Of a DNA stretch of 64,000 nucleotides, positions 1,059 through 59,712 are shown in pieces (position 1 is the stretch's first letter; the number at the start of each line of letters is the position of its first letter). The stretch lies in NCBI GenBank assembly GCA_030426955.1, contig JAUHXS010000001.1, positions 82,661-146,660 of the forward strand, in the 5' to 3' direction. The stretch is from Bacteroidia bacterium (lineage in GTDB: Bacteria; Bacteroidota; Bacteroidia; Chitinophagales; JAUHXS01). The notes beneath the pieces were generated by a model that was not told where the DNA came from, made no database searches, and worked only from the letters and a program-made list of their open reading frames with translations. The position numbers and the translations under genes were made by a program.

Positions 1059-1132
1059 GTCATTTCGAACAAAGTGAGAAATCTCACTTTAAATAACTTT
1101 CAAAGGTAGATTCTTCCTAGCGTCAGAATGAC
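1059..1132. repeat. GTCAT...ATGAC long-hairpin intergenic repeat, full unit (74 nt)
   Basis: Sequence is GTCATTTCGAACAAAGTGAGAAATCTCAC...GGTAGATTCTTCCTAGCGTCAGAATGAC. The two halves are imperfect reverse complements. It lies 57 nt downstream of the stop of the 1189-2121 gene. Confidence 0.8.
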
Positions 1133-1188
1133 AAGCCTTTGAGAAGATTTTATAAAGATCAACCAAGCGTTAATCAATGAAATTGTCA

Positions 1189-2121
1189 TCAATTAAATGA
1201 ACTGACGACGTATCCATGACTGATGGCCAGTTCTTCTTTACTGTGTTTTGCATAATCACGGTGCACTTTTACTTTGCTAAGTTCTTCTATGTTTCCCTCT
1301 CTTATTTGTTCTTCGGTAATAGGTATTTGAAGGTCTTCATATATGACTTTATAATCTTTAAATCGCATTCTATTTTGGGGCTGGATGCTGTTGTCTATCA
1401 TTTTCCATTGTGCCTGGCTAAACTTTAAAAAGTTATATATCGTAATGCTTTTATCAAAGTGTGCAAAGTGATCCGATAGATCTATAAAATGACTCATGAT
1501 ACCATTGGTCTTCAAGACTCTTTTAAATTCTATCAGTATATCTATCAATATATTCTTATGAATATGCTCAAAAGTATTATTTGAGCAGACGAAATCTATA
1601 CTTTGTGATGGTATGTTTGTTTTACGGGCATCTGTTACCAATGTATGTAAGCCAATTATATCTTTAATCTTGTTTAAGTCATAATCCAATGGGTGGTTGA
1701 TAATTTGAATTAGCTGTTCCCATTTATCCTGATTAAAGCTATCCAGGTATTGCGTTAGTAAGCCCTTATTTTTCCACTCTTCTAGCTTTTGTAGTGTTGT
1801 CAGTATATTTTCTTTGTTCAGCCAAAGCTGAATATCAATAGATGTTGTTTGACCTAAGTCCTTTAAATAAAAGCAAATGGGTATGATAGGATACCATCCA
1901 GTTCCTAGTTCCAGTATTTCATTGTCAGTTGCTTTCGCACCATATTTTCTCAAGAAATGAATATGATCTCTGGCATGCTCTAGCTTATATCTCAAATGTT
2001 CATCATCTAAAAAGACGCCCTTGGTGACATATCGTTGAAAAAGATAATTTACTTTGTTACTGTAAGGAAGAAATGAAATGGCTTTTTGAGTAATGGCTTT
2101 AGCCTTCCAAAGTAATGACAT
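1189..2121 (-). CDS. class I SAM-dependent methyltransferase
   Basis: 310-aa ORF. ILELGTGWYP looks like motif I and FVCSNNTFEHI like the post-II region of class I methyltransferases. Confidence 0.6.
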   Translation of the reverse strand: MSLLWKAKAITQKAISFLPYSNKVNYLFQRYVTKGVFLDDEHLRYKLEHARDHIHFLRKYGAKATDNEILELGTGWYPIIPICFYLKDLGQTTSIDIQLWLNKENILTTLQKLEEWKNKGLLTQYLDSFNQDKWEQLIQIINHPLDYDLNKIKDIIGLHTLVTDARKTNIPSQSIDFVCSNNTFEHIHKNILIDILIEFKRVLKTNGIMSHFIDLSDHFAHFDKSITIYNFLKFSQAQWKMIDNSIQPQNRMRFKDYKVIYEDLQIPITEEQIREGNIEELSKVKVHRDYAKHSKEELAISHGYVVSSFN

Positions 2122-2191
2122 AAGCTATGTTAATATTGGCTGTAAAGATAACAAATACAAAATCTTCGTAAACCAACCGCAAATATTTAGC

Positions 2192-2199
2192 TAATTTTG
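2192..2199 (+). promoter_or_regulatory. candidate Bacteroidota -7 promoter box (TAATTTTG)
   Basis: Exact match to TAnnTTTG, 7 nt upstream of the ATG at 2207. This implies a very short or absent 5' UTR. Confidence 0.3.
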
Positions 2200-2206
2200 T
2201 TTTGAA

Positions 2207-2899
2207 ATGAATCGCTCGAACAACTTTACTCTGGACCAAGTCATCTATGAAGACAATCACTTAATTGCGATCAATAAGAGATCGGGGCAAATAGTTCAAG
2301 GGGATAAAACAGGAGATACTTCACTTCTTGAACAAGTTAAGCAATACATTAAGGTAAAATATAATAAGCCTGGGGATGTGTTCTTGAATCTAGTACATCG
2401 AATAGATAGACCAGTTACCGGAGTATTATTGTTTGCAAGAACAAGCAAAGCAACGGAAAGGCTTAACAAGGCATTCCAAAACAGAGAAATAAAGAAAACC
2501 TATTGGGCACTAACTAAAAACAAACCAAAGCAGCTTCAAGCTAGACTAGAGCATCATATTTTAAGAGACAGAAAAAATAACGTTTCTAAAGCGTTGATGA
2601 GACCTAAAGGGGATGTTAAGAAAGGCGTTTTAAGCTATGCAGTCTTAAAGATCTATGATGGAAAATGTTTGCTTGAAGTCAAGCCTGAAACAGGTCGGCA
2701 TCATCAGATTCGTGCACAGCTAAGCGCAATGCAATGCCCGATAATCGGAGATTTAAAGTATCACTATCCTAAACCTAATGCCGATAAATCTATTTGTTTG
2801 CATGCAAAGGCACTGGAGCTTATGCATCCAGTAAAAAAGGAGAAACTTGTTATTCAAGCACCAATACCTAAAGTCGGTCCATGGCAAGGGATAAAGTAG
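2207..2899 (+). CDS. RluA-family pseudouridine synthase
   Basis: Contains HRIDRPVTGVLLFARTSKA (catalytic Asp motif) and GRHHQIRAQL, both typical of the RluA family. Confidence 0.85.
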   Translation: MNRSNNFTLDQVIYEDNHLIAINKRSGQIVQGDKTGDTSLLEQVKQYIKVKYNKPGDVFLNLVHRIDRPVTGVLLFARTSKATERLNKAFQNREIKKTYWALTKNKPKQLQARLEHHILRDRKNNVSKALMRPKGDVKKGVLSYAVLKIYDGKCLLEVKPETGRHHQIRAQLSAMQCPIIGDLKYHYPKPNADKSICLHAKALELMHPVKKEKLVIQAPIPKVGPWQGIK

Positions 2900-2905
2900 A
2901 TATTG

Positions 2906-4297
2906 CTATTCTTCGGTAATTCTGGACATTCTTTTGATTTCCTCAATCAAAGCTTCTTTATTTGGCTTAAGTGGAGAAATTGGGATGAAATTGCCTTTGC
3001 CTGAACTTGCTAAAAGTTTCATCGTGTTGATGGCATCTTGATCCTTTCCTAACCCAACAACGGATAAGTAAATAGGTTTGTCTGCCTGAAGCAATTTATT
3101 TGATTCTCTTTTTGCCATTTTGTGTATCTCCTTTTCTGAATCATTTTTATTGCTGAATAAGCCGTCTGTCGCAATAATGATTTGATTATTGCCTTCTAGG
3201 AAGTAATGCTCTCTAGCAATTTTATAAGCTTCTGTAAGGCCATTTACTCCATTGGTTAACCCACCGGATTTCAAGCTGTCAATAATAGTATACAGTAGTT
3301 CTTTATCATCGGCTTTCGTTGGCTCCAATACAATAGTGGGTGAGTACTTGTAGGTAATGATGGAAACTTGGTCTATATCTCTCAACCCCTTTATCATTCG
3401 CTTGATAGACGTTTTTAGCGATTCAAGTTTGTTGTTTTTGCCCATTGATAGAGAGACATCAATCAAGAACACAACATTATTGGGCTTGTATTCTGTAACA
3501 GGGAGTTCTAGGTCGCTCTCTATTATAGGTTTGGGGGATGCTTCCTTTTCTACTATTATATCTTTTTGCTCCTCTTCATCTATAGGTTCATCTCTGGGTA
3601 TTTTGTCCAGTTTTATAATGACTGTCATGATTTCTTTATTGACATCATACTTCATTGTATTGGGTTGATAACCCTCTGCTTTTGTAGAAATAACATACCT
3701 CCCTGGAGTTACTTCTCCTTTAAAAGTGCCGTCTTTTGGGGTGGTCACAGTATATAAAGGTTTGTTGTTGAGGACTAGTTCTACTTCAGCGCCTTCAATT
3801 CTCTTTCTGGTTAATCTGTCAATCACCTTGGCTTGTAAAGTATATTTTTGACCAACAAGACCTGTGGGCGTTTCTTCGTAAATAGCAGAAGGGTTAACGG
3901 TCGGACATTCGGTAACTGCTCCTTTAGCTAGAGATAAAACTTCGCCTTTTAGTTTAATTATTATTGGCTTGCTCGAAGCTGAAATATTTATAGGAACTGT
4001 TTTTTCAAATGCTCCGGCATGATCTGCATAGTAAGTGATCCATACTACGATTGTTTCTCCCGGTTGAATAGGGCGCTTGGGGTGTCTTACAAGTAAATCT
4101 CTGGAATACCTTTGAGGTAGTATGAATGCTGGCTTGCTATCGTTATTCGTTATCCTAAATGGAATTTGTTGAGGTAGCCACTCACTTACGATACCATAGT
4201 CATGTGTTCGTTTATCTATTTTTATCTGAGCAAAAGAGCCTTTTGTAAATATAAAAAAGGACAGGTAGAGTAAAGTAGGGACTGTTTTGAATCTCAT
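2906..4297 (-). CDS. secreted VWA domain protein with N-terminal beta-sandwich domains
   Basis: It has a signal peptide and a DUF1573/PapD-like N-terminal region. A CarboxypepD_reg-like segment (GTFKGEVTPGRYVIS) follows. The C-terminal VWA domain carries a MIDAS-like VVFLIDVSLSMG. Confidence 0.7.
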   Translation of the reverse strand: MRFKTVPTLLYLSFFIFTKGSFAQIKIDKRTHDYGIVSEWLPQQIPFRITNNDSKPAFILPQRYSRDLLVRHPKRPIQPGETIVVWITYYADHAGAFEKTVPINISASSKPIIIKLKGEVLSLAKGAVTECPTVNPSAIYEETPTGLVGQKYTLQAKVIDRLTRKRIEGAEVELVLNNKPLYTVTTPKDGTFKGEVTPGRYVISTKAEGYQPNTMKYDVNKEIMTVIIKLDKIPRDEPIDEEEQKDIIVEKEASPKPIIESDLELPVTEYKPNNVVFLIDVSLSMGKNNKLESLKTSIKRMIKGLRDIDQVSIITYKYSPTIVLEPTKADDKELLYTIIDSLKSGGLTNGVNGLTEAYKIAREHYFLEGNNQIIIATDGLFSNKNDSEKEIHKMAKRESNKLLQADKPIYLSVVGLGKDQDAINTMKLLASSGKGNFIPISPLKPNKEALIEEIKRMSRITEE

Positions 4298-4298
4298 C

Positions 4299-4817
4299 TT
4301 AAATATAACGTCTAAAGTATAAGTAAATTTTAATCGCTTCGTAAAACTTGCTCATCGGAACATGACCAAGATATTTTAGTTGATTGTCGATGTATTCCTT
4401 TAGTGCATCGTAGTTTTCGTAATAAAACTGAGAAACCTGAAGTATCTTTTCTCCGCCTTTATAGAGATAAAGCACTTCGTAGTCAGCATGCTTTGAAGAT
4501 TGAATAACGGTCTTATAACCATCTAAATCTTTAAAATAAAAGCTTACGGTTTTGAAAAAGTGTTTAAAGTATGGATTCACAATTACCTGTTGCTCATCCA
4601 TAGCCAATTTATTGCCCTTTATTATAAGTTCAAAAAAACCAATGATCAGCATGGAGAAAAAGAGAAGTGATAAGCCAATATATAATAATTGTTGTTTGAT
4701 TTGAGTTTCTCCAGAGTATAAATACAACATCATACTAGTGGCACAAATTGAAAATACAATTAATACACTTGGGGCATAAATTGCCCACTCATATTTTGAG
4801 TTTACTTTAGCAGACAT
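4299..4817 (-). CDS. hypothetical membrane protein (2 predicted TM helices plus a soluble C-terminal domain)
   Basis: The track ORF 4299-5027 overlaps the MATE gene. The internal Met (MSAKVNSKYEWAIY...) at 4815-4817 removes that overlap and forms a TGATG stop/start junction with the upstream gene. Confidence 0.5.
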   Translation of the reverse strand: MSAKVNSKYEWAIYAPSVLIVFSICATSMMLYLYSGETQIKQQLLYIGLSLLFFSMLIIGFFELIIKGNKLAMDEQQVIVNPYFKHFFKTVSFYFKDLDGYKTVIQSSKHADYEVLYLYKGGEKILQVSQFYYENYDALKEYIDNQLKYLGHVPMSKFYEAIKIYLYFRRYI

Positions 4818-6115
4818 CAAGTAAATGTATAAATATATCGCTTTGCTAATATGGTTTGTATAAAACCTCTGGAAATCATAAATCCCTGTAGAGCAATCCA
4901 CAAAGCATGATTCCCAACAAAGGGATGCAGTAAATAAAATAATGGGATAAAAACTAAAAAGGTAGAAATAAACATGACATTTCTCATTGGGACAGATGCG
5001 GTAGTACCAATGTAGACTCCATCCCATATATACGGTGCTACATTAATAACTGATCCAATAACAGTCCAAAAGAGAAATGAATTAGCTAAATCAACAATTT
5101 CTGGTTTGTCCGTGAACAGCCCTAATAGACTTTTTCCTCCTAAACCGTATACTAAGGCATATATCATTCCTAATATCATACCCCAATAAAAAGATTTCTT
5201 GATAGCAAGCTTTAAGTTAAGTAAATCCTTTGCTCCATAGTATTTCCCTACAAGACTCTCTGCTGCATAGGCGAATCCATCAATTCCAAAAGACAAGATC
5301 ATAAATAACTGCAATAATATGGCATTGGCTGCCAGTATTTGATCTCCTAAAGTGGCTGACTTGGCAGTAAAGAAAGAAAAGGCAAAGATGAGGCATAATG
5401 TTCGAAGAAAAATATCTCTGTTTACAGTAAAGAATTTTTTTAATTCGTTCAGTTTATGAAAACGCTCTTTACTCCAGTAACTTAGGTAATGTCTATACGT
5501 TTTGAAAAACAAGACAATTGCTAATGTCAATCCTAGGTATTGTGCACAGACTGTACCTAGTGCAACACCATCAGAAGCCATGTTAAACTGGAATATAAAT
5601 AGTAGGTTGAATAGAACGTTAGCTACATTGATGAATATGGTGATATACATAGGGTATTTGGCATTTTGCATCCCGAGAAACCATCCAAGCATAGCATATA
5701 ATCCGACAGTTGCAGGAGCCGCCCAAATTCTAATGTTATAGTATTCTTTGGCAAGAGCCTCTACCTCTTGACTGCCCTCTAGTATATTAAAACTAATCCA
5801 TTCGATGGGAGATTGCAGTAATAAAACTAATATGCCGCCACATAATGCTACTACAGCTGCTCTACCTAATGAAACAATCACACCTCCATCGTCTTTATTG
5901 CCAAAGCTTTGGGCAACTAAACCTGTTGTGCCCATTCTTAAAAAGCTAAAACCGGAATAAATAAAGCTAAAAATGATACCTCCAAGTGCTATTGCACCAA
6001 TGTAGGCGCTTGATTCCATGTGTCCCATTAAGGCAGTATCCACTGCACCTAATAGCGGCACAGAGAGGTTGCTGATAATATTGGGAATGGCTAGGCGAAG
6101 GAGTTGTTTATTCAT
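4817..6115 (-). CDS. MATE family efflux transporter
   Basis: 432 aa and polytopic. The N-terminus NKQLLRLAIPNIISNLSVPLLGAVDTALMGH is the canonical start of a MatE domain, with a second MatE repeat in the C-terminal half. Confidence 0.85.
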   Translation of the reverse strand: MNKQLLRLAIPNIISNLSVPLLGAVDTALMGHMESSAYIGAIALGGIIFSFIYSGFSFLRMGTTGLVAQSFGNKDDGGVIVSLGRAAVVALCGGILVLLLQSPIEWISFNILEGSQEVEALAKEYYNIRIWAAPATVGLYAMLGWFLGMQNAKYPMYITIFINVANVLFNLLFIFQFNMASDGVALGTVCAQYLGLTLAIVLFFKTYRHYLSYWSKERFHKLNELKKFFTVNRDIFLRTLCLIFAFSFFTAKSATLGDQILAANAILLQLFMILSFGIDGFAYAAESLVGKYYGAKDLLNLKLAIKKSFYWGMILGMIYALVYGLGGKSLLGLFTDKPEIVDLANSFLFWTVIGSVINVAPYIWDGVYIGTTASVPMRNVMFISTFLVFIPLFYLLHPFVGNHALWIALQGFMISRGFIQTILAKRYIYTFT

Positions 6116-6145
6116 TTATTACAAGGTAATAAATAATGAGAAGTC

Positions 6146-6937
6146 TTAAGTAAGTCTTTTAATAGACTTTAATTGATGCGAATATTGCTTTGTAGCACTA
6201 TTATAAATGCCATACTGGTCTAGCTTATCTTGCCTTACCTTTCCTGAGGCGTGTATGATGTCAAATTCGCCATCTTCTTTTTTTAAGATAATACCAACAT
6301 GTGTTATTTTATTTTCCTTATTGGCAAAGAATGCCAAATCACCATCCTTTGCCATGGCTAGTATGTCAACGTTTTTTCCTTGTTCTGCTTGTTGATAGGC
6401 ATCTCTTTGAAGTTGTATGCCACAAAGTTTAAAAACTACTTGGGTCAGGCCAGAACAGTCTATGCCGAAAGGGGAACGTCCACCCCAGAGATACGGAGTA
6501 TTGAGATATTTTTTTGCAATTTTTATCAGGATGTCATTGCTTACGGGTGACATGTGAGGTCTGATGGTATTGCCATTATATACCCACTTTTTATTATTCA
6601 GTTTAAAGTTCATGCCATCAAAGAAGGGGAGCGTGCTTCCTATTAATAACTGGATGTGGTTTTTGTTTGAAGTTGCCGGCTGTAACAGACTTAGAGAGTA
6701 ACCTTTATCGGATTGGTTGGTTTTTGTGAACTCTTTTTCGTCTAACTTTAGGCATTGCTTCGAGTCAATCCAACCCGTGTATTGATCATGAAAGCTTTCA
6801 ATTTTAAGCCATTGATCTTTGGTTTGTTGGATAGTAAATGTTTCTCCAAATAGAAGCTGAGAAATCATTTCACTTGCATCTGAAGGCTCTTTTCTGATGG
6901 GGACGACACATAAATTACAAATACCGAACTGATGCAT
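6146..6937 (-). CDS. NlpC/P60 (C40) peptidoglycan peptidase with N-terminal SH3b-like domain
   Basis: Catalytic Cys lies in GIDCSGLTQVVF, with His in ITHVGI and HASG. The likely start is the internal Met (MHQFGICNLCVVPIRKEPS) at 6937 rather than the track start at 6997. Confidence 0.85.
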   Translation of the reverse strand: MHQFGICNLCVVPIRKEPSDASEMISQLLFGETFTIQQTKDQWLKIESFHDQYTGWIDSKQCLKLDEKEFTKTNQSDKGYSLSLLQPATSNKNHIQLLIGSTLPFFDGMNFKLNNKKWVYNGNTIRPHMSPVSNDILIKIAKKYLNTPYLWGGRSPFGIDCSGLTQVVFKLCGIQLQRDAYQQAEQGKNVDILAMAKDGDLAFFANKENKITHVGIILKKEDGEFDIIHASGKVRQDKLDQYGIYNSATKQYSHQLKSIKRLT

Positions 6938-6991
6938 GATTTGCCAAAGATAATAGTTCTTTAGAAATGAACCAGCTAAAGTCAAAAGAGA

Positions 6992-7130
6992 AAACAAACC
7001 TTTCTAAAACCATCTAGTATTAATATTGGTGAAAACGTCATTGCGAAGAACTGAAGCAATCTAAAACCTTTAGCAACGAGACTGCTTCGATACCTCGCAG
7101 TGACGGTAAAGGTTTTAGAAAGGTTTGTTT
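6992..7130. repeat. composite inverted-repeat element: 20-bp perfect IR arms enclosing a GTCAT...GTGAC hairpin unit
   Basis: Bases 6992-7011 (AAACAAACCTTTCTAAAACC) are the exact reverse complement of 7111-7130. The inner unit at 7037-7104 is GTCATTGCGAAGAACTGAAGCAATC...GACTGCTTCGATACCTCGCAGTGAC. Confidence 0.8.
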
Positions 7131-7222
7131 AGGTTGAAGCATTTCTCGTTTTGTTGATATCAAGTTAGTTTCTTTGCTTTTCAAACTATTGAAAGCACTG
7201 CAAATTCAAGTATTTTTATGTT

Positions 7223-10200
7223 ATGCGACTAGTAAGTCTAGAGACGAAGGGTTTTAAAAGTTTTGCCGACAAGACTGTAATTAACTTTAATGATAATATT
7301 ACAGGTATTGTGGGACCAAATGGATGTGGTAAATCCAACGTGATTGACTCTATTCGCTGGGTACTTGGCGAGCAGAAAACTAGCGCATTGCGTTCCGATA
7401 AAATGGAGAATGTCATCTTCAATGGCTCTAAAAAGCGTAAGGCTTCCAGTTTGGCTGAAGTTTCCTTGACATTTGAGAATACAAAAAACGTTTTACCCAC
7501 AGAATATACTACGGTTACCATTACCAGAATGCTTTATCGAAATGGCGAAAGCGAATATAAGCTGAATGGCATTTCGTGTCGGTTAAAAGATATTACCAAT
7601 CTATTCTTGGATACTGGGATTGGCAGTGACTCTTATGCCATTATTGAATTAGGAATGGTCGATGAGATACTAAATGATCGGGAACATTCCAGAAGAAGGT
7701 TGTTTGAGCAGGCTGCTGGAATATCAAAATATAAGACGCGAAAAAGAGAGACGCTGAATAAGCTCTCTGCAACTGAAGGAGATTTGAACAGGGTGGAGGA
7801 TTTACTTTTTGAAATAAATGACAATCTTAAATCTCTAGAATCCCAAGCAAGAAGAACTAAGCGATATTACCAGTTAAAAGAAGAATATCAAACTTTCAGT
7901 GTTGAGCATGCCAAACATACTTTGTCTGGTTTTGGAGAGCAGTTTAAGCGGTTGAAACAACAGCAGCAGGAAAATGAGGACAAACGTTCTAAGGTAGAGG
8001 TGGACTTTAAAAGCATTGACTCAACGGTAGAGAAAGAAAAGCTGCAAAGCTTAGAAAAAGAAAAGCAATTGTCTTCACTTCAAAAAGAGCTGAACGAAAA
8101 GTTGCATAAGCTTAGAGAGCAAGAAAATCAGAAGAACCTATTTTCTGAAAAAGCGAAATTCTTAACTGAAAAGAGAGAGTCCGTAACGCAGCAGATTTCT
8201 GATTTAAAAGATCAAAATAACTTCTTAGCTGAGGAAATAAAAGCATTAGAAGTTAAAAAGAATGAGGAACAAGCTTTATTTGATAAGGCTCAAAAAGAAC
8301 TAGAGCAATTACTAAAAGAAAAAGAGAAGCATTCGACTGAATACGAGAAAGCAAAAAAAGAACTTGGCGAAGTTCGGATTTCTTTACAAACGAAGGAAAG
8401 AGAATACTACGAGCTAGAAAAGAAATTAGAAGTAAATACATCACAATTAGAAAACTTGAAGTCTTCTCTGGAATTAAGTCTGACAGAGAAAGACAGTCGA
8501 GAAGGAGAACTAAAAGCTTTAACAAAAGAACTAAAGGAAAAAGAGCAAGAGCTTGACAGTGAGTCAGCTAAAATAAAAAAGCTAGAAGCGCAACAAGAAA
8601 CTATAGAGCAAGCCATTGGCGAAGCAAGGGGTACTATTGACACGGAACAACAAAAGTTGGTTGATCTTAATCGAAAGTTGGATGCCAAGCAAAACGAGTA
8701 CGATCTTACGAAAGATCTGGTTGATAGCTTAGAGGGCTTTCCTGAGTCCGTTCGTTTTTTGAAAAAGGAAGTTGCCGTAACAAAAAATGCGCCTCTGTTA
8801 TCTGATATTATTTCTTGTGGAGAAGAATATAGAGTTGCTATTGAAAATTATCTTGAGCCATATTTGAATCATTATGTTGTCAATAATAGAGAAGAGGCAA
8901 TCGTTGCAATCAATATTTTAAGTGATGCTTCAAAAGGAAGAGCAAACTTTTTCTTATTAGACCAGTTTAAAGCAGAAAAAGAAAAGAAAGGGAAAGTTGA
9001 CGGAGTATGGGCAACTGATGTGATTGATGTAGAGCAAAGGTATACTAGCTTGTGTCGATACTTGCTAAGAAATGTGGTTTTAGTTGATGGCAATGATGTA
9101 TCACCAAATGACGATGAAATATATGTTTCTAAAAATGGAAAATTTGTTCAATCGAGTCGAATAGTATCTGGAGGGGCAGTCGGACTTTTTGAGGGCAAGC
9201 GCATCGGACGGGGAAAAAATTTAGAAAAGCTCAAAAAAGAAATAGATCAACTTAATACGGAAATTAACAAGTGTAAAAAGCAAATAGACCAAGCTAGTGT
9301 TGCGTTAAAGAAACAGGAGGAGGCTTCTCGGTTGGATGCTATTAGAGGATTTAAAGACAGCTGGAATATTAAAAATAGTCAATTTATTAGCCTTAAGGCT
9401 AAGGTTGAAGGTTTGGCAGAGTTGATTAAAAACAACAATGATAAAGAGGAAGATGCAGCACAAAAGGTAAAGATTCTTGAGGCGGAAAATGAAAACGTAC
9501 AAAAGCAATTGGTAGGTGTAAAGGAATTGAAAAGTAGCTTGCAATTGAGGCTTGAAAAGCGGGAGGAGGGCTTTCGAGAAATTGATAAGCAACATGAATT
9601 GACAAGCCAAACCTACAACTCTAATAATATTGAAGTGCATAAGCTGCAAAATGCTTTGAATAGCACCATTCAGCAATTAACATATAAAGAAGAGCAACTA
9701 AAAAGCAATCAAAGCAAGATTGAAGCAAATCAGCAAGCACTCAAAGATGCGGATGATCAAATTAAAAACTCTTTTTCAAATTCTACCGATCTTGAAAAGT
9801 CTTTGATCAAGCTATATGAAGAGAAAGAGGCTTTTGAGAAAAAGCTCAATGTTTCCGAGGAAAACTACTACAAGTCAAAAGGGAATGTAAACGAGTTAGA
9901 ACAACAACTTAAAGAGCTTAGTCGTCAAAAAGAGCAATTAGATACATTGCTCAATGAGATCAGAGAGAAAGTGAATGAACTGAAGTTGACGACAACAAGT
10001 ATCCGAGAACGATTGTCGGTAGAATTTAATATTGATGTTAATGAAATTATCAATCAAGAGCCTGATCCTAAATACAATGCTGATGTTGTAGCCGAAAAGG
10101 TTGAGAAATTAAAGGGGCGATTGGATAATTATGGAGAGATCAACCCAATGGCAGTTGAAGCCTTTGACGAGATGCAGAAAAGGTTTGATTTTATTACCAA

Positions 10201-10744
10201 TCAAAAGAATGACTTGTTGAATGCCAAGCAGTCACTATTAGATACAATCGATGAGATTGATGGGATTGCCAAAGAAAAATTCTTAAACGCCTTTACTGAA
10301 GCAAGGGAAAACTTCATCAAAGTGTTTCACAGTTTATTTTCGGAGGAAGATCAATGTGATTTGATCTTATCAGATGAAGAAAATCCATTAGAAGCAAAAA
10401 TTGAGATTATTGCAAAGCCAAAAGGAAAGAAACCACTGACAATCAATCAGCTTTCAGGTGGAGAAAAAACGCTGACGGCAACAGCTTTGTTATTTTCATT
10501 ATATCTCTTGAAACCAGCACCTTTCTGTATTTTTGATGAGGTGGATGCTCCTTTAGATGATACGAACATTGCTAAGTTTAACAATATTATCAAAGACTTC
10601 TCTAGCGAGTCTCAGTTTATCATTGTCACACATAATAAACAAACCATGTCTTTTATGGATGTGATTTACGGCGTGACTATGGCCGAGGAAGGTGTGTCGA
10701 AGTTAGTTCCTGTTGATTTCAGGGCTTTGAAGAAGGCGAGTTGA
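7223..10744 (+). CDS. smc: chromosome segregation protein SMC
   Basis: 1173 aa. It has Walker A GPNGCGKSN, long coiled coils with a central hinge, the C-terminal signature LSGGEKTLTA, and Walker B FCIFDEVDAPLD. Confidence 0.95.
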   Translation: MRLVSLETKGFKSFADKTVINFNDNITGIVGPNGCGKSNVIDSIRWVLGEQKTSALRSDKMENVIFNGSKKRKASSLAEVSLTFENTKNVLPTEYTTVTITRMLYRNGESEYKLNGISCRLKDITNLFLDTGIGSDSYAIIELGMVDEILNDREHSRRRLFEQAAGISKYKTRKRETLNKLSATEGDLNRVEDLLFEINDNLKSLESQARRTKRYYQLKEEYQTFSVEHAKHTLSGFGEQFKRLKQQQQENEDKRSKVEVDFKSIDSTVEKEKLQSLEKEKQLSSLQKELNEKLHKLREQENQKNLFSEKAKFLTEKRESVTQQISDLKDQNNFLAEEIKALEVKKNEEQALFDKAQKELEQLLKEKEKHSTEYEKAKKELGEVRISLQTKEREYYELEKKLEVNTSQLENLKSSLELSLTEKDSREGELKALTKELKEKEQELDSESAKIKKLEAQQETIEQAIGEARGTIDTEQQKLVDLNRKLDAKQNEYDLTKDLVDSLEGFPESVRFLKKEVAVTKNAPLLSDIISCGEEYRVAIENYLEPYLNHYVVNNREEAIVAINILSDASKGRANFFLLDQFKAEKEKKGKVDGVWATDVIDVEQRYTSLCRYLLRNVVLVDGNDVSPNDDEIYVSKNGKFVQSSRIVSGGAVGLFEGKRIGRGKNLEKLKKEIDQLNTEINKCKKQIDQASVALKKQEEASRLDAIRGFKDSWNIKNSQFISLKAKVEGLAELIKNNNDKEEDAAQKVKILEAENENVQKQLVGVKELKSSLQLRLEKREEGFREIDKQHELTSQTYNSNNIEVHKLQNALNSTIQQLTYKEEQLKSNQSKIEANQQALKDADDQIKNSFSNSTDLEKSLIKLYEEKEAFEKKLNVSEENYYKSKGNVNELEQQLKELSRQKEQLDTLLNEIREKVNELKLTTTSIRERLSVEFNIDVNEIINQEPDPKYNADVVAEKVEKLKGRLDNYGEINPMAVEAFDEMQKRFDFITNQKNDLLNAKQSLLDTIDEIDGIAKEKFLNAFTEARENFIKVFHSLFSEEDQCDLILSDEENPLEAKIEIIAKPKGKKPLTINQLSGGEKTLTATALLFSLYLLKPAPFCIFDEVDAPLDDTNIAKFNNIIKDFSSESQFIIVTHNKQTMSFMDVIYGVTMAEEGVSKLVPVDFRALKKAS

Positions 10745-10780
10745 TTCCTGCTGATATGTTTCTATTTATTATTTCACTCT

Positions 10781-10916
10781 GTCATATTGATCCGCCAACT
10801 GGCGGAGAAAAATCTACCTTTGAGGTAATAGATGTTAGATGTCTCGTGCCTCGACATGACAAAGGCTTTAGGTTTTTGATTTATCGTGTCATATCGAGCA
10901 GAGCGAGATATCCACC
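10781..10916 (+). repeat. composite repeat: full GTCAT...ATGAC unit (10781-10860), spacer, and a left-half unit (10888-10916)
   Basis: The full unit is GTCATATTGATCCGCCAACTGGCGGAGAAAAATCTACC...GTTAGATGTCTCGTGCCTCGACATGAC, followed by AAAGGCTTTAGGTTTTTGATTT and GTCATATCGAGCAGAGCGAGATATCCACC. The same composite recurs at 11331-11461 and 14328-14448. Confidence 0.85.
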
Positions 10917-10940
10917 TTTGATTAAATAAGGAAAGAAGTT

Positions 10941-11246
10941 TTAATAACTCCAAATACCCTTATTTAAAGAAAGCCAATTAGGATTATCCTTTTCAATGAG
11001 TTTATCCTTTCGCTCCCTTTTCCATCCTTTGATTTCTTTTTCTCGTTCGATAGCATGATTTATATCACTATGCCTTTCCCAATAAACTAAATTGTAACAA
11101 TAATATTTTCTCGCAAAAGTTGCTGATTGACCTCTGTTTTCAAAATGCTCGTTTAATCTTCTTTCCAGATCATTAGTAACACCAGTATATAATGTTGTTT
11201 TCTTTGGATTGGTGACGATGTATACAAAATAGTTGCCAGCGTTCAT
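10941..11246 (-). CDS. stand-alone GIY-YIG nuclease family protein
   Basis: 101 aa. YFVYIVTN...LYTGVTNDLERRLNEH...EREKEIKGWKRERK matches the small single-domain GIY-YIG (URI-domain) family. Confidence 0.85.
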   Translation of the reverse strand: MNAGNYFVYIVTNPKKTTLYTGVTNDLERRLNEHFENRGQSATFARKYYCYNLVYWERHSDINHAIEREKEIKGWKRERKDKLIEKDNPNWLSLNKGIWSY

Positions 11247-11278
11247 GATCTAAAGTTAAGCATTTGTAGCATTACAGA

Positions 11279-11306
11279 AGGTTAGATGCTTCATTCTTCA
11301 GTATGA
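11279..11306. repeat. degenerate right-half repeat unit
   Basis: GGTTAGATGCTTCATTCTTCAGTATGAT resembles the GGTAGAT...ATGAC right half, with a degenerate terminus. Confidence 0.5.
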
Positions 11307-11330
11307 TATTTCTTTTATTATTGAATTGCC

Positions 11331-11461
11331 ATCATTTTTATTTACCGTCTGACGGAGAAAGTTCCCATTTGAGGCAATGAGAAGGTAGATGTCTCGTGCC
11401 TCGACATGACAAAGTGTTTAGGTTTTGATTTTGTCATATTGAGCGTAGCGAAATATCTAAC
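11331..11461 (+). repeat. composite repeat (second copy): 80-nt unit, spacer, and a left-half unit (11433-11461)
   Basis: Sequence is ATCAT...TACCGTCTGACGGAGAAAG...GGTAGATGTCTCGTGCCTCGACATGAC AAAGTGTTTAGGTTTTGATTTT GTCATATTGAGCGTAGCGAAATATCTAAC. It is colinear with 10781-10916. Confidence 0.8.
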
Positions 11462-11503
11462 TTATTTATAGTGTATCACTCACAATGGAAATGTATAAAT
11501 GAG

Positions 11504-14149: not shown

Positions 14150-14182
14150 ATATGATCGTATCTATTTCTTAACCAGGTGAGA

Positions 14183-14190
14183 CAAATATA
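14183..14190 (-). promoter_or_regulatory. candidate -7 promoter box (TATATTTG) for the 11504-14149 gene
   Basis: Exact TAnnTTTG on the minus strand, 33 nt upstream of the ATG at 14149. Confidence 0.4.
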
Positions 14191-14241
14191 CTGGAATTGC
14201 TTATTTGATTCAAGTACAAATTATGGCAATTGTACGGATAA

Positions 14242-14300
14242 GTTGCTATGTCTCGTACTCCTGCCTTGCTGGAGTGCAACGCAGGCAGGTCGGCAGGATA
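14242..14300. repeat. partial right-half repeat carrying the CCTGCC...GGCAGG sub-hairpin module
   Basis: Sequence is GTTGCTATGTCTCGTACTCCTGCCTTGCTGGAGTGCAACGCAGGCAGGTCGGCAGG. The sub-hairpin at 14262-14291 matches 14681-14710 at 25 of 30 positions. Confidence 0.7.
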
Positions 14301-14327
14301 AGGGAGGATGAACTTTATAACGATACT

Positions 14328-14399
14328 GTCATATTGAGCGTAGCGAAAAATCTACCTTTGAGGTAATAGAAAGGTGGATGTCTCTTGCCTCGACATGAC
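14328..14399 (+). repeat. GTCAT...ATGAC repeat, full unit (72 nt, the cleanest copy)
   Basis: Sequence is GTCATATTGAGCGTAGCGAAAAATCTACCTTTGAGGTAATAGAAAGGTGGATGTCTCTTGCCTCGACATGAC. Confidence 0.85.
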
Positions 14400-14422
14400 A
14401 AAGGGTTTAGATTTTTGATTTT

Positions 14423-14588: not shown

Positions 14589-14616
14589 ATTGAAGGATGG
14601 TTTTGCTAATTATCCT

Positions 14617-29951: not shown

Positions 29952-30024
<73 letters not shown>

Positions 30025-46648: not shown

Positions 46649-46713
46649 GTCATGCTGAGGCACGAAGCACCTACCTTAAATAAAGTTAGATATTTCACTT
46701 CGTTCAATATGAC
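46649..46713. repeat. GTCAT...ATGAC repeat, full unit (65 nt)
   Basis: Sequence is GTCATGCTGAGGCACGAAGCACCTACC...GTTAGATATTTCACTTCGTTCAATATGAC. It lies 53 nt downstream of the hldD stop. Confidence 0.8.
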
Positions 46714-52897: not shown

Positions 52898-52996
52898 GTC
52901 ATTTCTCATCCGCCAACTGGCGGATGAGAAATCCACCTTGATGAAAAGTTAGACCTGCCTGACGGCTAGGCAGGTTTCTCCTATCGTCGAAATGAC
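52898..52996. repeat. GTCAT...ATGAC repeat, full unit (99 nt) with two internal palindromic modules
   Basis: Sequence is GTCATTTCTCATCCGCCAACTGGCGGATGAGAAATCCACC...GACCTGCCTGACGGCTAGGCAGGTTTCTCCTATCGTCGAAATGAC. It lies 45 nt downstream of the fabD stop. Confidence 0.8.
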
Positions 52997-53042: not shown

Positions 53043-55043
53043 ATGAAAAAAGTATTTACAATAACATTATTATCGCTAAGCTTAGGTTTATTTGCACAAC
53101 CTACCACTTTGCTATTTGAAGATTTTAACGCAGGAATGCCTGCTGGATTCACATTAAGGGATTTGGATGGACATACGCCTGAAGATACAGTTGCACATAT
53201 TAATGATGCTTGGGTAGCGGATACAAATGCCTTTAATGGCGACTTAGTAGCTGTAAGTACATGCTTTTATACAGATGGGGTCTTTTCTGATGATTGGATG
53301 ATAACATCATCAGTAGTATTTACGAAAAATGGAGTACTGTCTTATAAAATTGCAAGGCTTAATGACGCTGATTTTAGTAGGGTAGAGGTTCGGATTGCCA
53401 GAGATACCGCCATTGATAGTTTTATGGCAACTTTGCCGATTGATGAAGTCACTCCTGCCCTCTCAGACTATACAGGAGAAACTAGAATAGTTGACCTTGG
53501 AGCCTTAGGATATAATAATGATACATTTTATATTGCCTTCCGCAATAACACAACAGAGTTTGTACATCAACATGTTGAGTTGTATATTGATTCTATTCAT
53601 GTCTATGAAGTCACCACTTTAGATGCAGCAGTAACTAGCGCTGATATAGGATTTATTGGCTCAGGAGTAAATCACCCTGTTGCTGGAGTGTTAAAAAATG
53701 AGGGCGCAGACACGATGCGATTTTTTAACTTGAGATGGCAAATAGATGGTGGAACTGTCAATACGGATTTCATCGCATCTGAAAATATTGCTCCGCAAGC
53801 AAGCTATAGCTTTGATCATACAACTATGTTGAACGTTACGGCAACTGGAGAACACACTTTAAAAATATGGGCTGATAGCATCAACGGAATGGAGGATCAA
53901 AACCATGTGAATGATACATTAGAGGTTTCATTTTATGTGATGAGTGAAATTCCAACTAAGCGCGTTTTGTTAGAGCAGTTTTCAGGAACATGGCACGGCT
54001 GGATTCCTGATGGAGATTACAGGGTAGCGCAAATGGAGGCGGACAATGTAATAGGCGTAAGTATTCACTTACAAGACTCTATGGAAATACTGCCACCCCT
54101 AGGAACAACTGACGTTATATTAGAGTATAGTGAAAACTTAGATCCCTTTAGAATTGGCTCTAATAATAGAGCGTTGATTGACAGAAGTGGTTTTAACAAC
54201 TTACCATATGTAGACATGGCATATCCGGATACTACATCCTGGAAAGAGAAAGTAGATGAACAACTTAATGAGATCACCAATGTGTCCTTATCTGCAACCA
54301 ATAGCTTTGATACCATTGATAGAAGTTGGGTGATAGATGTTGACGTAGAATTTCTCGCTCCAGGTGATGGAGGGGAATATAGAGTAAATTGCTACATTGT
54401 TGAAGATGGCGTTCAGGGTACGGGAACATTGTTTGACCAGACCAATTTGCTAAATTCTACTGCGGGGCATCCATTTGAAGGAGCTGGCGATCCTATTGTC
54501 GACTATGAGCATAATAATGTGTTGCGTCATGCATTTGGGGGTACTTGGGGTACAGCAGGTTCAATAAGTGGTACAATTGATGCCAATGATGAATTTGATT
54601 ATCAATACAATTTTCCAGTCGGTGGAATACCAGAAACCTGGGCTGAAGCTAACCTATCGGTAGTTGTATTTGTGCAGAAGTTTAATAACTCAGATAGTAG
54701 CGATCGTTTCGTATTGAATGCATTTAAGATGCCATTAACTTATGGCTCCAATAGTGTGGGTATTGAATTGGTCGCAGATAACAATATAGATGCGAAAATA
54801 TATCCAAATCCAGTTAAAGACTTTGCTGTTATTGACTTGAATTTAGAAGAGCGAAGCGAAGTCAGGATTGATATTTATGATATAACAGGCAGAAGGGTTG
54901 AGTTATTGTCACAGAAAATACTAGAAAATGGGAACCATCGTTATATGATTAACAGAAGCGAGATGGCACTAAACTCAGGAATGTACTTTGTTAGTATTGT
55001 CACTGATGACATTGCTCATGTAAGAAGAATAATCATTGAATAA
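53043..55043 (+). CDS. T9SS type A sorting domain-containing surface protein (choice-of-anchor-J-like N-terminus, Omp28-related middle domain)
   Basis: It has a signal peptide, and FEDFNAGMPAGFTLRDLDGHTP resembles a choice-of-anchor J domain. EQFSGTWHGWIPDG aligns with the (E)xFTxxxCxxCP box of Omp28-related proteins, but both Cys residues are lost. The C-terminal CTD is KIYPNPVKDFAVIDL...GMYFVSIV. Confidence 0.72.
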   Translation: MKKVFTITLLSLSLGLFAQPTTLLFEDFNAGMPAGFTLRDLDGHTPEDTVAHINDAWVADTNAFNGDLVAVSTCFYTDGVFSDDWMITSSVVFTKNGVLSYKIARLNDADFSRVEVRIARDTAIDSFMATLPIDEVTPALSDYTGETRIVDLGALGYNNDTFYIAFRNNTTEFVHQHVELYIDSIHVYEVTTLDAAVTSADIGFIGSGVNHPVAGVLKNEGADTMRFFNLRWQIDGGTVNTDFIASENIAPQASYSFDHTTMLNVTATGEHTLKIWADSINGMEDQNHVNDTLEVSFYVMSEIPTKRVLLEQFSGTWHGWIPDGDYRVAQMEADNVIGVSIHLQDSMEILPPLGTTDVILEYSENLDPFRIGSNNRALIDRSGFNNLPYVDMAYPDTTSWKEKVDEQLNEITNVSLSATNSFDTIDRSWVIDVDVEFLAPGDGGEYRVNCYIVEDGVQGTGTLFDQTNLLNSTAGHPFEGAGDPIVDYEHNNVLRHAFGGTWGTAGSISGTIDANDEFDYQYNFPVGGIPETWAEANLSVVVFVQKFNNSDSSDRFVLNAFKMPLTYGSNSVGIELVADNNIDAKIYPNPVKDFAVIDLNLEERSEVRIDIYDITGRRVELLSQKILENGNHRYMINRSEMALNSGMYFVSIVTDDIAHVRRIIIE

Positions 55044-57541: not shown

Positions 57542-57565
57542 TTCTTAAACTTTGGACAAGCTTAT

Positions 57566-58408
57566 TTAAAGAACTTTATCTAATCCAAACATCTCATCAG
57601 GTCTGACTCCTCTATCGGTAAATTGAAGCGTGCAACATTCATGTTCTTTCTCATGTTCAAAGAATAATGTGTAGTTTTCTTTGGTTGCGCTTTTTAAGAA
57701 AGCTTCTTTTTCCTTTAGTGTTTGTAAAGGATTCGTATCATAAGCCATTACATAAGGTACAGGAATATGTCCTGGAGAGGGCAGTAGATCGGCCATATAA
57801 ACGATCATTTGCCCATTGTATTCTATATGAGGAATCATCATTGCAGCGGTGTGACCATGTACGAAGTGAATTTTGAAATTGGGAAATAATTCAATCATAT
57901 CTGTTTCATCAACAAACTCAAGCTTACCACTTTCCTGAATTGGTAAGATATTTTCCTTTAAAAAAGATGCCTTTTCTCTTGGATTAGGATTTACCGCCCA
58001 TTCCCAATGTGTTTTGTTAGACCAATAGGTAGCATTAGGAAATGCTGGAGTCAAATCTTCTCCATTCTTTTGAATGGCGCCTCCACAATGGTCAAAATGA
58101 AGATGAGTTAAAAAGACATCTGTTATTTCACCAGGTGTATACCCTTTGGCTTGTAAGGATGATATTAAAGAATTTTTTCCATGAGGCTCGTAATAGCTAA
58201 AGAACTTTTCACTTTGTTTATCTCCAATTCCTGTATCTATAAGCACTTTTCTATCTCCGTAATCAATCAGAAGACATCTCATCGCCCAAGTGCATAGATT
58301 ATTATCATCAGGAGGGTTGATGTTTTTCCAAATCGTTTTTGGCACGACACCAAACATCGCACCACCGTCTAGTTTGAAGAAACCAGTGTCTATTACGTGT
58401 AATTGCAT
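57566..58408 (-). CDS. MBL-fold metallo-hydrolase
   Basis: 280 aa with FLTHLHFDHCGG (HxHxDH) and downstream His/Asp ligands. Confidence 0.8.
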   Translation of the reverse strand: MQLHVIDTGFFKLDGGAMFGVVPKTIWKNINPPDDNNLCTWAMRCLLIDYGDRKVLIDTGIGDKQSEKFFSYYEPHGKNSLISSLQAKGYTPGEITDVFLTHLHFDHCGGAIQKNGEDLTPAFPNATYWSNKTHWEWAVNPNPREKASFLKENILPIQESGKLEFVDETDMIELFPNFKIHFVHGHTAAMMIPHIEYNGQMIVYMADLLPSPGHIPVPYVMAYDTNPLQTLKEKEAFLKSATKENYTLFFEHEKEHECCTLQFTDRGVRPDEMFGLDKVL

Positions 58409-58472
58409 GATTATTTAAAATAGATAAAATTTTGAAGTCATGATAGATGAATAAAAGTAAAATTTTTATTCT

Positions 58473-58504
58473 AAATCTTCCCCTCCCATGGGAGAGGAAG
58501 ATTT
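58473..58504. terminator. near-perfect 32-nt palindrome downstream of the 58531-59571 gene (possible terminator)
   Basis: AAATCTTCCCCTCCCATGGGAGAGGAAGATTT forms a 16-bp stem with one mismatch, centred on CCATGG. There is no clean U-tract on either strand. Confidence 0.4.
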
Positions 58505-58530
58505 AGTCTGCTATAGAATTCTTTTTCTAG

Positions 58531-59571
58531 TTATAGCTTAATCATTTTTTGCCTAAACACAGTTTCATTATTCGTTTTGGCTTCAAAAAAGTATATACCA
58601 CTGTCTAGTTCGTCTGTATTGATAGCTCCTTGATTGTTGTTATTCTTATGTAAGATGATTTTACCTAAACTATTGTATACTACTATCTCGTAATTGTCTG
58701 ATGTGAAAGCATATACAGACTCAGAGAAAGGGTTTGGATAAAAGAGCTTAAGGCGCTCATTAGCTTTTTGATTGGAAATAGCTGTTGTTCCATTTCCTCC
58801 AGAATTATTTCCAGAAGTATCATGGATATATGTTTCGTTATAGCTCGTTCCATAACCGACTAGCTTATTAGACTGGTATACCTCTTTGGTTACTGAATCT
58901 TGTACTATTACAATGATTTCTAGCTCATTTTCATTCCATGCCCCGTCTATTGCAATTGTTGTGTTGAAAACTAAGGAGTCATTCATACTAGGCATTTCAA
59001 AACTTTGATTCTCAAACAACATTCTTCTAAATACATTGTGATGAACATCTTCGCCATTTGGTGCATTGTAATCGACAGTTTCTTCTGCTACAACAGCGTA
59101 AAGTTGCAATTTGCCACCTAGCACAGTCCCCTCCGACTTCAAAATGATGGTTGTTGCGATAGAGTCTCCATTCTTATTATTAGAAATAAGCCCAATATTT
59201 ATAGACATGGAATCGCCACTAACACTAGTAAAAAGAGTGCTGTCTCCATAGTTTGTTCCAGAAGATATGACATCTCCTTGTATAACTAATCTAGGTGTAC
59301 CGAGATTTCCATAATAACTAGCCCTTGCATCATTTTCACTAGGGTTATGCAAATGTAAAAAGCAGTTGCTATAAGGCGTGCTAGGATGTATAGATAGGTG
59401 AATCACTTCGGGGTAATTATTCAAATTGCTAAAGAATCCTGGGTTTCTGCTTGCACAAACCGAGCATCTTGTGTTCGTAAAGTGTTCAACAACAACTTTT
59501 TTTTGCATTTGGCTTGTGCCAATTGTTATACTTCCAATGACTATTAGTAGAACTAGGTTGATTTTTTTCAT
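58531..59571 (-). CDS. T9SS type A sorting domain-containing, Omp28-related thioredoxin-like protein
   Basis: It has a signal peptide, and VVVEHFTNTRCSVCASRNP is a CxxC box. The C-terminal CTD is LFYPNPFSESVYAF...GIYFFEAKTNNETVFRQKMIKL. Confidence 0.7.
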   Translation of the reverse strand: MKKINLVLLIVIGSITIGTSQMQKKVVVEHFTNTRCSVCASRNPGFFSNLNNYPEVIHLSIHPSTPYSNCFLHLHNPSENDARASYYGNLGTPRLVIQGDVISSGTNYGDSTLFTSVSGDSMSINIGLISNNKNGDSIATTIILKSEGTVLGGKLQLYAVVAEETVDYNAPNGEDVHHNVFRRMLFENQSFEMPSMNDSLVFNTTIAIDGAWNENELEIIVIVQDSVTKEVYQSNKLVGYGTSYNETYIHDTSGNNSGGNGTTAISNQKANERLKLFYPNPFSESVYAFTSDNYEIVVYNSLGKIILHKNNNNQGAINTDELDSGIYFFEAKTNNETVFRQKMIKL

Positions 59572-59638
59572 GAACGTGAAGTTTGATTTTTTATGAGCTT
59601 GTCTAAAGCTAACTCAATGAGGTTTTCTAAAAAGTACT

Positions 59639-59712
59639 GTCATTTCGACGTTAGGAGAAATCTAACTTAGTATTTTCCCTAAAGGTAGATTTTTCACTTC
59701 GTTCAAAATGAC
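59639..59712. repeat. GTCAT...ATGAC repeat, full unit (74 nt)
   Basis: Sequence is GTCATTTCGACGTTAGGAGAAATCTAAC...GGTAGATTTTTCACTTCGTTCAAAATGAC. It lies 92 nt downstream of the mutS stop. Its right half is nearly identical to that of 46649-46713. Confidence 0.8.

Follow-up and report, generated by a model that had tools for sequence, protein, structure and literature searches.

Hairpin modules with a GTC tag as probable partners of a small Ssn-like GIY-YIG nuclease in Bacteroidota

We have analysed a 64,000-nt stretch of the genome of a Bacteroidia bacterium (contig JAUHXS010000001.1, positions 82,661 to 146,660, hereafter the window), which carries a dispersed family of repeats with GTCAT...ATGAC ends. 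The recurring unit of this family is a hairpin module of 27–29 nt. These modules probably belong to the NTS/SRM (Ssn-related motif) class of hairpins, which is also that of the CGTC-tagged repetitive extragenic palindromes (REPs), and have as partner an Ssn-like nuclease whose gene lies among them in the window. By analogy with SsnA of Neisseria meningitidis, they would most likely function as single-stranded DNA (ssDNA) hairpin sites bound and cut by this local nuclease.

A repeat family confined to intergenic DNA

The window has a GC content of 35.7% and is about 90% coding. Its proteins, some with C-terminal sorting domains of the type IX secretion system (T9SS) and others of the ParAB type, have their nearest relatives in Cytophagales and Chitinophagales. 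Degenerate copies included, 24 modules and one remnant are spread over 8 intergenic regions, and coding DNA holds none. For eight independent loci, such restriction to the ~10% non-coding share has a probability of about 1e-8. We scanned the window with a strict structural pattern, GTCAT-xxx-N7-45-x'x'x'-ATC, in which x'x'x' is complementary to the free triplet. It matched 17 times, compared to 1.69 ± 1.37 (maximum 7) in 100 dinucleotide shuffles. A covariance model trained on 17 window modules found its training copies again, together with three copies carrying insertions, and returned nothing in coding DNA at E<1. Grouping of the repeats in the window also showed left arms to be reverse complements of the right arms of other units. 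The family is genuine and stands far above chance level.

The original prediction, made from the letters of the window, had listed ten units of 65–140 nt, all of which were found in place with GTCAT...ATGAC ends, and at least five half units, which correspond to single or degenerate copies at 10888–10916, 11281–11307, 11433–11461, 14248–14298 and 14424–14448. It had put the units outside coding sequences, and all 24 copies are indeed intergenic with none touching a gene; its description of GC-rich islands agrees with a GC of 0.48 in modules vs 0.32 in intergenic DNA. The units were also said to lie shortly past the stop codons of named genes. We measured distances of 27–91 nt, and the names agree with Pfam matches to SMC, MutS, Acyl_transf_1, Epimerase, FMN_red and a methyltransferase. 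On whether the family had been catalogued, the answer is divided. Rfam returned only 2 tRNAs over the whole window at gathering thresholds and no match in 10700–14800 at E<=1; repeats of its kind were described in 2013 and 2025, and the published motif misses the present variant.

Module anatomy and stem covariation

Written in one orientation, the window copies read (T/C)GTC-AT-xxx-GA-N5-7-GA-x'x'x'-AT-C-TA(A/C)C. The stem opens with an A-T and a T-A pair followed by three freely covarying pairs, and is flanked by an unpaired tag and a C-T-A-C tail. Between the two GA dinucleotides, the interior comprises 1–2 bp and a GNA triloop, and the AT-to-AT span is 19–21 nt. In the alignment of 17 modules, G13, T14 and C15 of the tag, as well as C37, are invariant or near-invariant, and AT follows the GTC tag in 16 copies.

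Covariation of the stem is directly apparent from this alignment. Paired combinations occupy 96.5% of the cells, with 24 double-sided changes and compensatory exchanges at four of the five pairs, a result matched by none of 500 shuffles. When the register was shifted by one to three positions, pairing dropped to 20–60%. The same stem is seen in 138 distinct sequences from other genomes, where 98% of cells are paired and 133 double-sided changes occur.

We further examined 240 modules from related loci. T precedes GTC (position -1) in 83% of them, and the tandem GA is kept on both sides (5' GA in 200, 3' GA in 207). The register places G opposite A and A opposite G directly after the five Watson-Crick pairs, and these bases may form sheared pairs. 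No further contiguous Watson-Crick pair extends the 5-bp stem in 233 of the 240 modules, whose interior lengths peak at 9 and 11 nt, and 92 of 109 triloops are of the GNA type. If GA/AG and the inner 1–2 bp are counted as paired, the module reaches 8–9 "pairs" with a 3-nt loop.

GC-rich hairpin insertions are tolerated in the loops, as observed at 10791–10806, 52909–52924, 52953–52973 and 14677–14707, in agreement with the dispensable loop identity reported for SsnA (Chenal et al. 2025, Nat Commun, PMC11893778). More generally, further GC-rich perfect hairpins form a second layer, nested in module loops or placed beside tags (10791–10806, 52909–52924, 11344–11356, 52953–52973, 14258–14290, 14505–14535 and 14677–14707). 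One of them, TCCGCCAACTGGCGGA, occurs twice, several are of CCTGCC...GGCAGG types, and the strongest predicted folds are due to these nested hairpins. In arrays, ATGAC is followed by a conserved linker, AAAGGNTTTAGGTTTTTGATTT, at 10861–10885, 11411–11432 and 14400–14423, and at about 1180–1215 of one related locus (L004; related loci carry L numbers). A 17-mer with one mismatch to this linker, ATGACgggattttaggtttctgatttt, lies beside NTS copies at the gonococcal ssnA locus, a resemblance that could be due to chance in AT-rich DNA.

Paired modules

The originally proposed 65–140-nt repeat unit did not hold: the real unit is the 27–29-nt module, and covariation takes place inside the arm, the variable triplet finding its partner within its own arm and not across arms. 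Each longer unit consists of two modules with their tags facing outward. Six or seven of the ten pairs combine arms with different triplets (for example an ATT/AAT arm with a GTC/GAC arm), and the 65–140-nt unit is therefore a heterodimer of two modules. Folding of each unit into one long hairpin, as had been proposed, is retained for four to five of the ten units and fails for the rest. In DNA folding against shuffles, the ten units gave z-scores from -0.7 to -6.9, and three of them were better than all 200 shuffles. Over all module pairs counted, the tags point outward in 61 cases, inward in 36, and the modules are in tandem in 31.

A GIY-YIG gene inside the repeat cluster

A small open reading frame (ORF) at 10941–11246 (minus strand), overlooked in the original prediction, lies inside the repeat cluster between smc and a gene for a T9SS-secreted protein. 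It encodes a 101-aa single-domain GIY-YIG protein (Pfam PF01541, E 1e-17) and is bracketed by seven modules, three at 10781–10916 and four at 11281–11461. The nearest module on each side has its tail toward the gene.

The protein is homologous to SsnA, with 39% identity over 87 aa to the 94-aa protein of N. gonorrhoeae (pairwise E 7e-19). This relative was reached by tblastn against a plasmid collection of 7.3 Gb, in which the gonococcal match comes from two chromosomes filed as plasmids; in a database of this size the E-value is 6e-10, the published homologue criterion being E<1e-10. Nine exact NTS copies surround the 94-aa gonococcal ORF within 3.2 kb, which identifies it as gonococcal ssnA. 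The UPF0213 structure 1zg2 is more distant than SsnA (E 7e-6, 27% identity). An AlphaFold model of the window protein (pLDDT 85) has as best PDB matches 1zg2, Slx1, UvrC-N and I-TevI, all of them GIY-YIG folds, and residues of the GIY-YIG catalytic type (Y9, Y20, G22, R30, H34, E69 and N88) are invariant in 22 homologues. Sequence and fold searches of the PDB found no Ssn structure, returning only UPF0213, Slx1, UvrC and I-TevI.

Other routes to a name for the protein were discarded: NCBIfam gave only a sub-threshold match to a group-I-intron endonuclease, and PADLOC and PHROGs only weak matches to homing endonucleases.

Gene and modules in other genomes

Homologous loci were collected as the best 80 from a scan of one genome per species, and come from Cytophagales, Sphingobacteriales, Chitinophagales and Flavobacteriales. 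The window-derived covariance model gave 219 matches in these loci, clustered beside the gene. A strict module is present within 500 bp of the gene in 46 loci, and on both sides in 30, shares comparable to those published for SRMs (71% and 42%). Module density amounts to 2.23/kb within 500 bp of the gene vs 0.13/kb beyond 1 kb, a 17-fold difference. The association of gene and repeat is thus phylum-wide, and the same arrangement was read directly in Bernardetia, in Fulvivirga and on two plasmids, one from Spirosoma and one from the cyanobacterium Planktothrix agardhii.

Two of these loci lie among defence genes. In Bernardetia sp. OM2101 (L002/L012, 1859–6303), an ssn homologue and modules lie between Cas7- and Cas3-type genes of a CRISPR-Cas locus. 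On plasmid p1 of P. agardhii (L006, 1–3264), they stand between an MmeI-type restriction-modification gene and the DISARM gene drmA.

Some loci also show 5'-half "stutters", in which a truncated GTCAT-xxx-GA with 2–5 further nt ends in the loop and is followed by a T-rich linker, then by a complete module with the same triplet. We counted 20 cases in six loci from different orders and a cyanobacterium (L012 2342–2870, L021 2136–2940, L064 1233–2850, L043 2814, L025 2197 and L006 1192–1900), sometimes with two or three in succession; 14424–14453 of the window is a degenerate analogue. The repeated segment runs from just upstream of GTCAT, which is the position of the SsnA cut in Neisseria, to the loop apex. 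Stutters could be traces left by template switching, or by cleavage and its repair.

Relation to known repeat systems

SsnA of N. meningitidis, a member of CDD family cd10448, has 94 aa and a single GIY-YIG domain. Its target, NTS (CGTCATTCCCGCGMAVGCGGGAATCYRG), is bound only as ssDNA and on one strand only; SsnA cuts a few nucleotides upstream, and does not bind RNA. NTS can be written CGTCAT-TCCCGCG-MAV-GCGGGA-ATC-YRG, with an AT-to-AT span of 20 nt. Mutagenesis in Neisseria showed the C after the palindrome to be most critical for binding and the three nucleotides before the palindrome for cleavage. The SRM repeats are defined by a tag HGTCWY, an inverted repeat of 20–50 nt and a C after the palindrome (3' motif RNCYNB); 71% of Ssn homologues are flanked by at least one SRM, and 42% on both sides. 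Cleavage of the cognate motif was shown for three more homologues, bringing the gene–repeat pairings shown by experiment to four, all proteobacterial. In Neisseria, the outcome is a restricted integration of transforming ssDNA that bears NTS, and NTS clusters near genes for surface proteins (all from PMC11893778).

The modules resemble this system closely. The window sequence tGTCAT-TTCGACG-TTA-GGAGAA-ATC-TAAC aligns position for position with cGTCAT-TCCCGCG-CAG-GCGGGA-ATC-TAGA. Both have an unpaired (H)GTC tag before a palindrome that starts with AT, a C directly after it and a span of about 20 nt, and both form intergenic clusters and inverted pairs, and lie on either side of a gene for a single-domain GIY-YIG protein of ~100 aa. 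The module tail ATCTAC fits RNCYNB, with C37 invariant in the window. The columns that are invariant or near-invariant in the window, which are those of the GTC tag and of the C that follows the stem, correspond to the positions critical for SsnA.

The hairpin interior, in contrast, is different. Modules have 5 Watson-Crick pairs, a GA/AG mismatch and a GNA core of 1–2 bp, whereas SRMs have 8–9 GC-rich pairs and a loop of 4–5 nt; the Neisseria and Sinorhizobium repeats have Watson-Crick CG/CG in stems of 8–9 bp where modules carry GA...GA. Modules also prefer T over C before GTC, and their low-GC Bacteroidota host is known here from sequence, while the experiments concerned Pseudomonadota.

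A side case is that of Sinorhizobium meliloti pSymB (L087, 860–1169), where three copies with a fully Watson-Crick 9-bp stem (GTCATCCTCGGGCTTGACCCGAGGATCC) precede a homologue that shares 55% identity with the window protein. The published SRM pattern recognises only one of these copies, which suggests that this pattern under-counts even in Alphaproteobacteria.

The CGTC-tagged REPs are characterised by an unpaired CGTC, TGTC or CCTC tag, a stem starting with A-T and a short tail. They form tags-outward dimers, are never associated with REP-associated tyrosine transposases (RAYTs), occur in five phyla including Bacteroidetes, and comprise the dRS3/NIME arrays of Neisseria and the RPE-4 and RPE-6 repeats of Rickettsia (Di Nocera et al. 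2013, PMC3733652). The original prediction had noted a likeness to REPs and bacterial interspersed mosaic elements (BIMEs), and this likeness fits the CGTC-tagged superfamily: the modules have a terminal CGTC/TGTC tag, A-T at stem positions 1–2, a short unpaired tail, dimers mostly with tags outward and commonly heterodimeric, and no association with a transposase. They differ by a 5-bp Watson-Crick stem with a non-Watson-Crick interior of 9–11 nt and a TAC tail, against a stem of 8–9 bp, a loop of 4–5 nt and a CCA-like tail in the REP families. Arrays are frequent here and rare for CGTC repeats outside Neisseria and Wolbachia.

GCGNAGC DNA mini-hairpins are known for extraordinary stability (PMC13037366). 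Several module cores are exactly of this motif, GCGTAGC at 11443–11449, 14338–14344 and 14627–14633, and GCGAAGC in L012 and L021. The mini-hairpin is a physico-chemical motif and not a genetic element, while in the modules it forms part of a longer hairpin associated with a protein.

Predicted action of the nuclease and points that weigh against it

If the modules act as NTS does, the GTCAT strand would fold into the hairpin whenever it becomes single-stranded, for example during replication, repair, or ssDNA uptake or transfer. The 101-aa GIY-YIG protein would then bind the stem and the 3' C, and would cut this strand on the 5' side of the tag, at a distance of a few nucleotides, as SsnA does at NTS. 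By the Neisseria parallel, cutting might modulate recombination of incoming ssDNA. At a higher order, arrays of tags-outward dimers surround the nuclease gene.

Several observations weigh against this reading. The published SRM pattern, HGTCWYN(0-2)YYVSBRHN(0-5)WNVSBRGN(0-2)RNCYNB, matches nowhere in the window and once across the 80 Bacteroidota loci, compared to nine times in a 3.2-kb gonococcal control. Similarly, the published NTS motif has no match in the window or the Bacteroidota loci and works on the gonococcal control. By the published operational definition, the modules are thus outside the SRMs; the pattern misses them because the hairpin interior differs (GA/AG, GNA core). Nearest-neighbour DNA energies give plain modules no advantage over shuffles (z from -1.2 to +0.9), and it is the GC-extended copies alone that are stable (z -3.8 and -8.4). 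The structural evidence therefore comes from covariation and not from predicted stability. Energy models are blind to sheared GA pairs, which may be a reason for the poor fold z-scores. In addition, 34 of the 80 homologous loci (leaving 58% with one) have no strict module within 500 bp of the gene; there the protein may have other targets, or modules may escape the strict pattern. Finally, the predicted binding and cleavage derive from 39% identity to the characterised enzyme, and the window of 64 kb contains a single ssn gene.

Alternative explanations

A further possibility is that the GIY-YIG nuclease also spreads the modules, in a selfish or domesticated partnership similar to that of REPINs with RAYTs and built on a GIY-YIG fold in place of an HUH transposase. 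We hold this to be unlikely. An insertion sequence-like module–gene–module layout, arrays around the gene, identical subtypes at distant loci, homologues in defence islands and recurrent 5'-half stutters are all compatible with such spreading and do not prove it.

We consider it improbable that the primary role of the modules is at the RNA level, as rho-independent terminators or as stabilisers of mRNA 3' ends, which the original prediction had proposed. In its favour, seven of eight loci follow a stop codon at a distance of 27–91 nt, GC-rich inserts give some copies strong hairpins, and REP-like elements of other bacteria can stabilise upstream mRNA. The position has no clear preference: a gene 3' end borders 7 of 8 module-bearing intergenic regions and 5 of 8 module-free regions of at least 120 nt (Fisher p=0.57), and one locus, 7037–7104, lies between divergent genes in a divergent promoter region. 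Of the two biases expected at the outset, the intergenic one was thus upheld (P~1e-8) and the 3'-end one was not. None of 13 terminator-like sites in 1–16000 overlaps a unit, and no T-tract follows the hairpins. Plain modules are unstable in energy models and, as said above, 10700–14800 has no Rfam match. The conserved unpaired tags and GNA triloops are typical of ssDNA mini-hairpins, and SsnA does not bind RNA (PMC11893778); together with the GA, these conserved features argue that the modules function at the DNA level and not as RNA. Side-effects on transcripts are possible.

Modules and gene might also merely share permissive intergenic hotspots, the modules being bound by another factor or simply selfish. 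The 34 loci with no strict module within 500 bp go in this direction, as does the fact that the repeats cluster in arrays anyway. A hotspot is nevertheless highly improbable, since in four orders and a cyanobacterium module density beside the gene is 17-fold that found at more than 1 kb, the pairing has been shown experimentally for four proteobacterial homologues (PMC11893778), and the positions critical for SsnA are invariant here.

Mobilisation by a RAYT (an IS200/IS605-like Y1 HUH transposase), as for classical REPs and REPINs, appears hardly credible. The modules share with REP/BIME/REPIN systems short intergenic tagged hairpins, inverted doublets, mosaic arrays, a gene for a small nuclease with its own repeats on either side, and a recognition that is presumably on ssDNA; moreover, the tail read on the opposite strand gives GGTAG, which is similar to the GTAG tag of REPs, and GTAG is present in most window copies. 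However, Pfam detected no transposase, Y1_Tnp (PF01797)/RAYT included, among the ~55 ORFs of the window, the flanked gene is of the GIY-YIG and not the HUH/Y1 type both here and at the 46 related loci, and CGTC-tagged repeats are never associated with RAYTs (PMC3733652). The conserved unpaired tag is GTC, at the opposite end, and since the tail is not conserved across genomes beyond ATC-T, GTAG is a local feature.

Miniature inverted-repeat transposable elements (MITEs), with GTCAT.../...ATGAC as terminal inverted repeats and a DDE transposase encoded elsewhere, would account for dispersed intergenic units of 65–140 nt with inverted ends. This other reading of the original prediction is scarcely tenable: the copies are singles, dimers in either orientation and arrays, and not a fixed-length element, the arms usually have different stems, so that the unit is not one copied element, unit length is inconsistent, the window units show no flanking direct repeats, covariation is within arms and the ~55 window ORFs include no transposase.

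Module copies along the window

The first pair consists of 1059–1087 (+), which reads GTCAT-TTC-GA..GA-GAA-ATC (47.7 bits), and 1105–1132 (-; triplet TCT, 39.4 bits), the left and right halves of the first listed unit. In the divergent intergenic region, 7037–7066 (+; TGC, 30.9 bits) faces 7076–7104 (-), a GTCAC tag variant also with TGC (29.8 bits).

On the stop-codon side of the ssn gene, the loop of 10781–10818 (+) is replaced by the GC hairpin TCCGCCAACTGGCGGA; this copy, which was outside the training set, scored 26 bits. It is followed by 10834–10860 (-; triplet GTC, core G-GCA-C) and by the single module 10888–10916 (+), located 24 nt from the stop codon with its tail toward the gene, both found with the covariance model. 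At the other end, the single module 11281–11307 (-), an ATCAT tag variant of 35.4 bits, is 34 nt upstream of the start and likewise has its tail toward the gene. Beyond it come a degenerate module at 11331–11366 (+), ATCAT...GGAGAAAGTTCCC with a nested hairpin ACCGTCTGACGG, which was read in the sequence, and two copies given by the covariance model, 11384–11410 (-; GTC) and the single module 11433–11461 (+) with a GCGTAGC mini-hairpin core.

The next cluster starts with a degenerate module at 14248–14298 (-) that has a GC-rich insert and has lost its tag; it is 80% identical to 14667–14717. The covariance model located 14328–14356 and 14617–14645 (both + and with a GCGTAGC core), 14373–14399 (-; GTC) and 14562–14588 (-; GCT). 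By direct reading, 14424–14448 (+) is a remnant, the 5' half of a module of the 10781 type (CTATATTGATCCGC...). Sequence and DNA fold define a composite or degenerate module at 14449–14544 (+), with a GTCAT tag, nested GC-rich hairpins and an ATCTATC tail. In 14662–14718 (-), detected in the sequence and by pattern scan, a 30-nt GC-rich hairpin is inserted between the core and the 5' stem.

The remaining copies form three pairs. The covariance model found 46649–46677 (+; GCT, tail CCTACC), beside which 46685–46713 (-), with an AC-GAA-GT core, scored 49.4 bits. In the module at 52898–52937 (+), all 14 bp of the stem are Watson-Crick pairs (predicted DNA fold -15.3 kcal/mol, z -8.4), and in 52948–52996 (-; 20.3 bits) a GC hairpin CCTGCCTGACGGCTAGGCAGG is inserted beside the tail. 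Last, 59639–59666 (+; TTC) was found with the covariance model, and 59684–59712 (-; TTT), again with an AC-GAA-GT core, scored 48.9 bits.

Neighbouring genes

The three genes with type-A T9SS sorting domains (Por_Secre_tail; 11504–14149, 53043–55043 and 58531–59571) all adjoin module-bearing intergenic regions, and the two CHU_C-type genes (16570–19767 and 40163–42265) do not. The post-hoc hypergeometric P is 0.011 for three of three and 0.08 for three of five, a sample too small to conclude. The adjacency is reminiscent of the clustering of NTS near surface-protein genes in Neisseria (PMC11893778).

Elsewhere in the window, 30650–31224 encodes an NTP_transf_2 nucleotidyltransferase and a HepT-like RNase, a toxin–antitoxin pair of the MNT/HepT type, just downstream of tRNA genes at 29952–30024 and 30095–30179. 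Between convergent genes, 26675–27425 comprises 751 nt with neither an ORF of at least 80 aa nor repeat modules.

Implications

The kind of system described here is already known, the repeats since 2013 and the nuclease partnership since 2025, and our results are an extension and not a new principle. What is new is the structural variant, with its short Watson-Crick stem, tandem GA and GNA mini-hairpin, which the published pattern does not see and Rfam does not contain. This variant is found across the phylum Bacteroidota and in at least one cyanobacterium. Examples of the GA variant may be found among the 29 curated genomes of Chenal et al. (2025).

An otherwise anonymous repeat family thereby receives a probable function, and a small gene annotated as "GIY-YIG nuclease family protein", widespread in Bacteroidota and found in at least one cyanobacterium, can be reannotated. 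The published SRM search systematically misses a large clade of Ssn–repeat pairs, whose copies a simple pattern recovers (TGTCAT-N3-GA-N5-8-GA-N3'-ATCT, with N3 and N3' complementary). Ssn enzymes are under development as sequence-specific ssDNA cutters. This clade is a source of candidate new ssDNA-nuclease specificities, and would provide a natural test of how a protein of 100 aa reads a non-canonical DNA hairpin.

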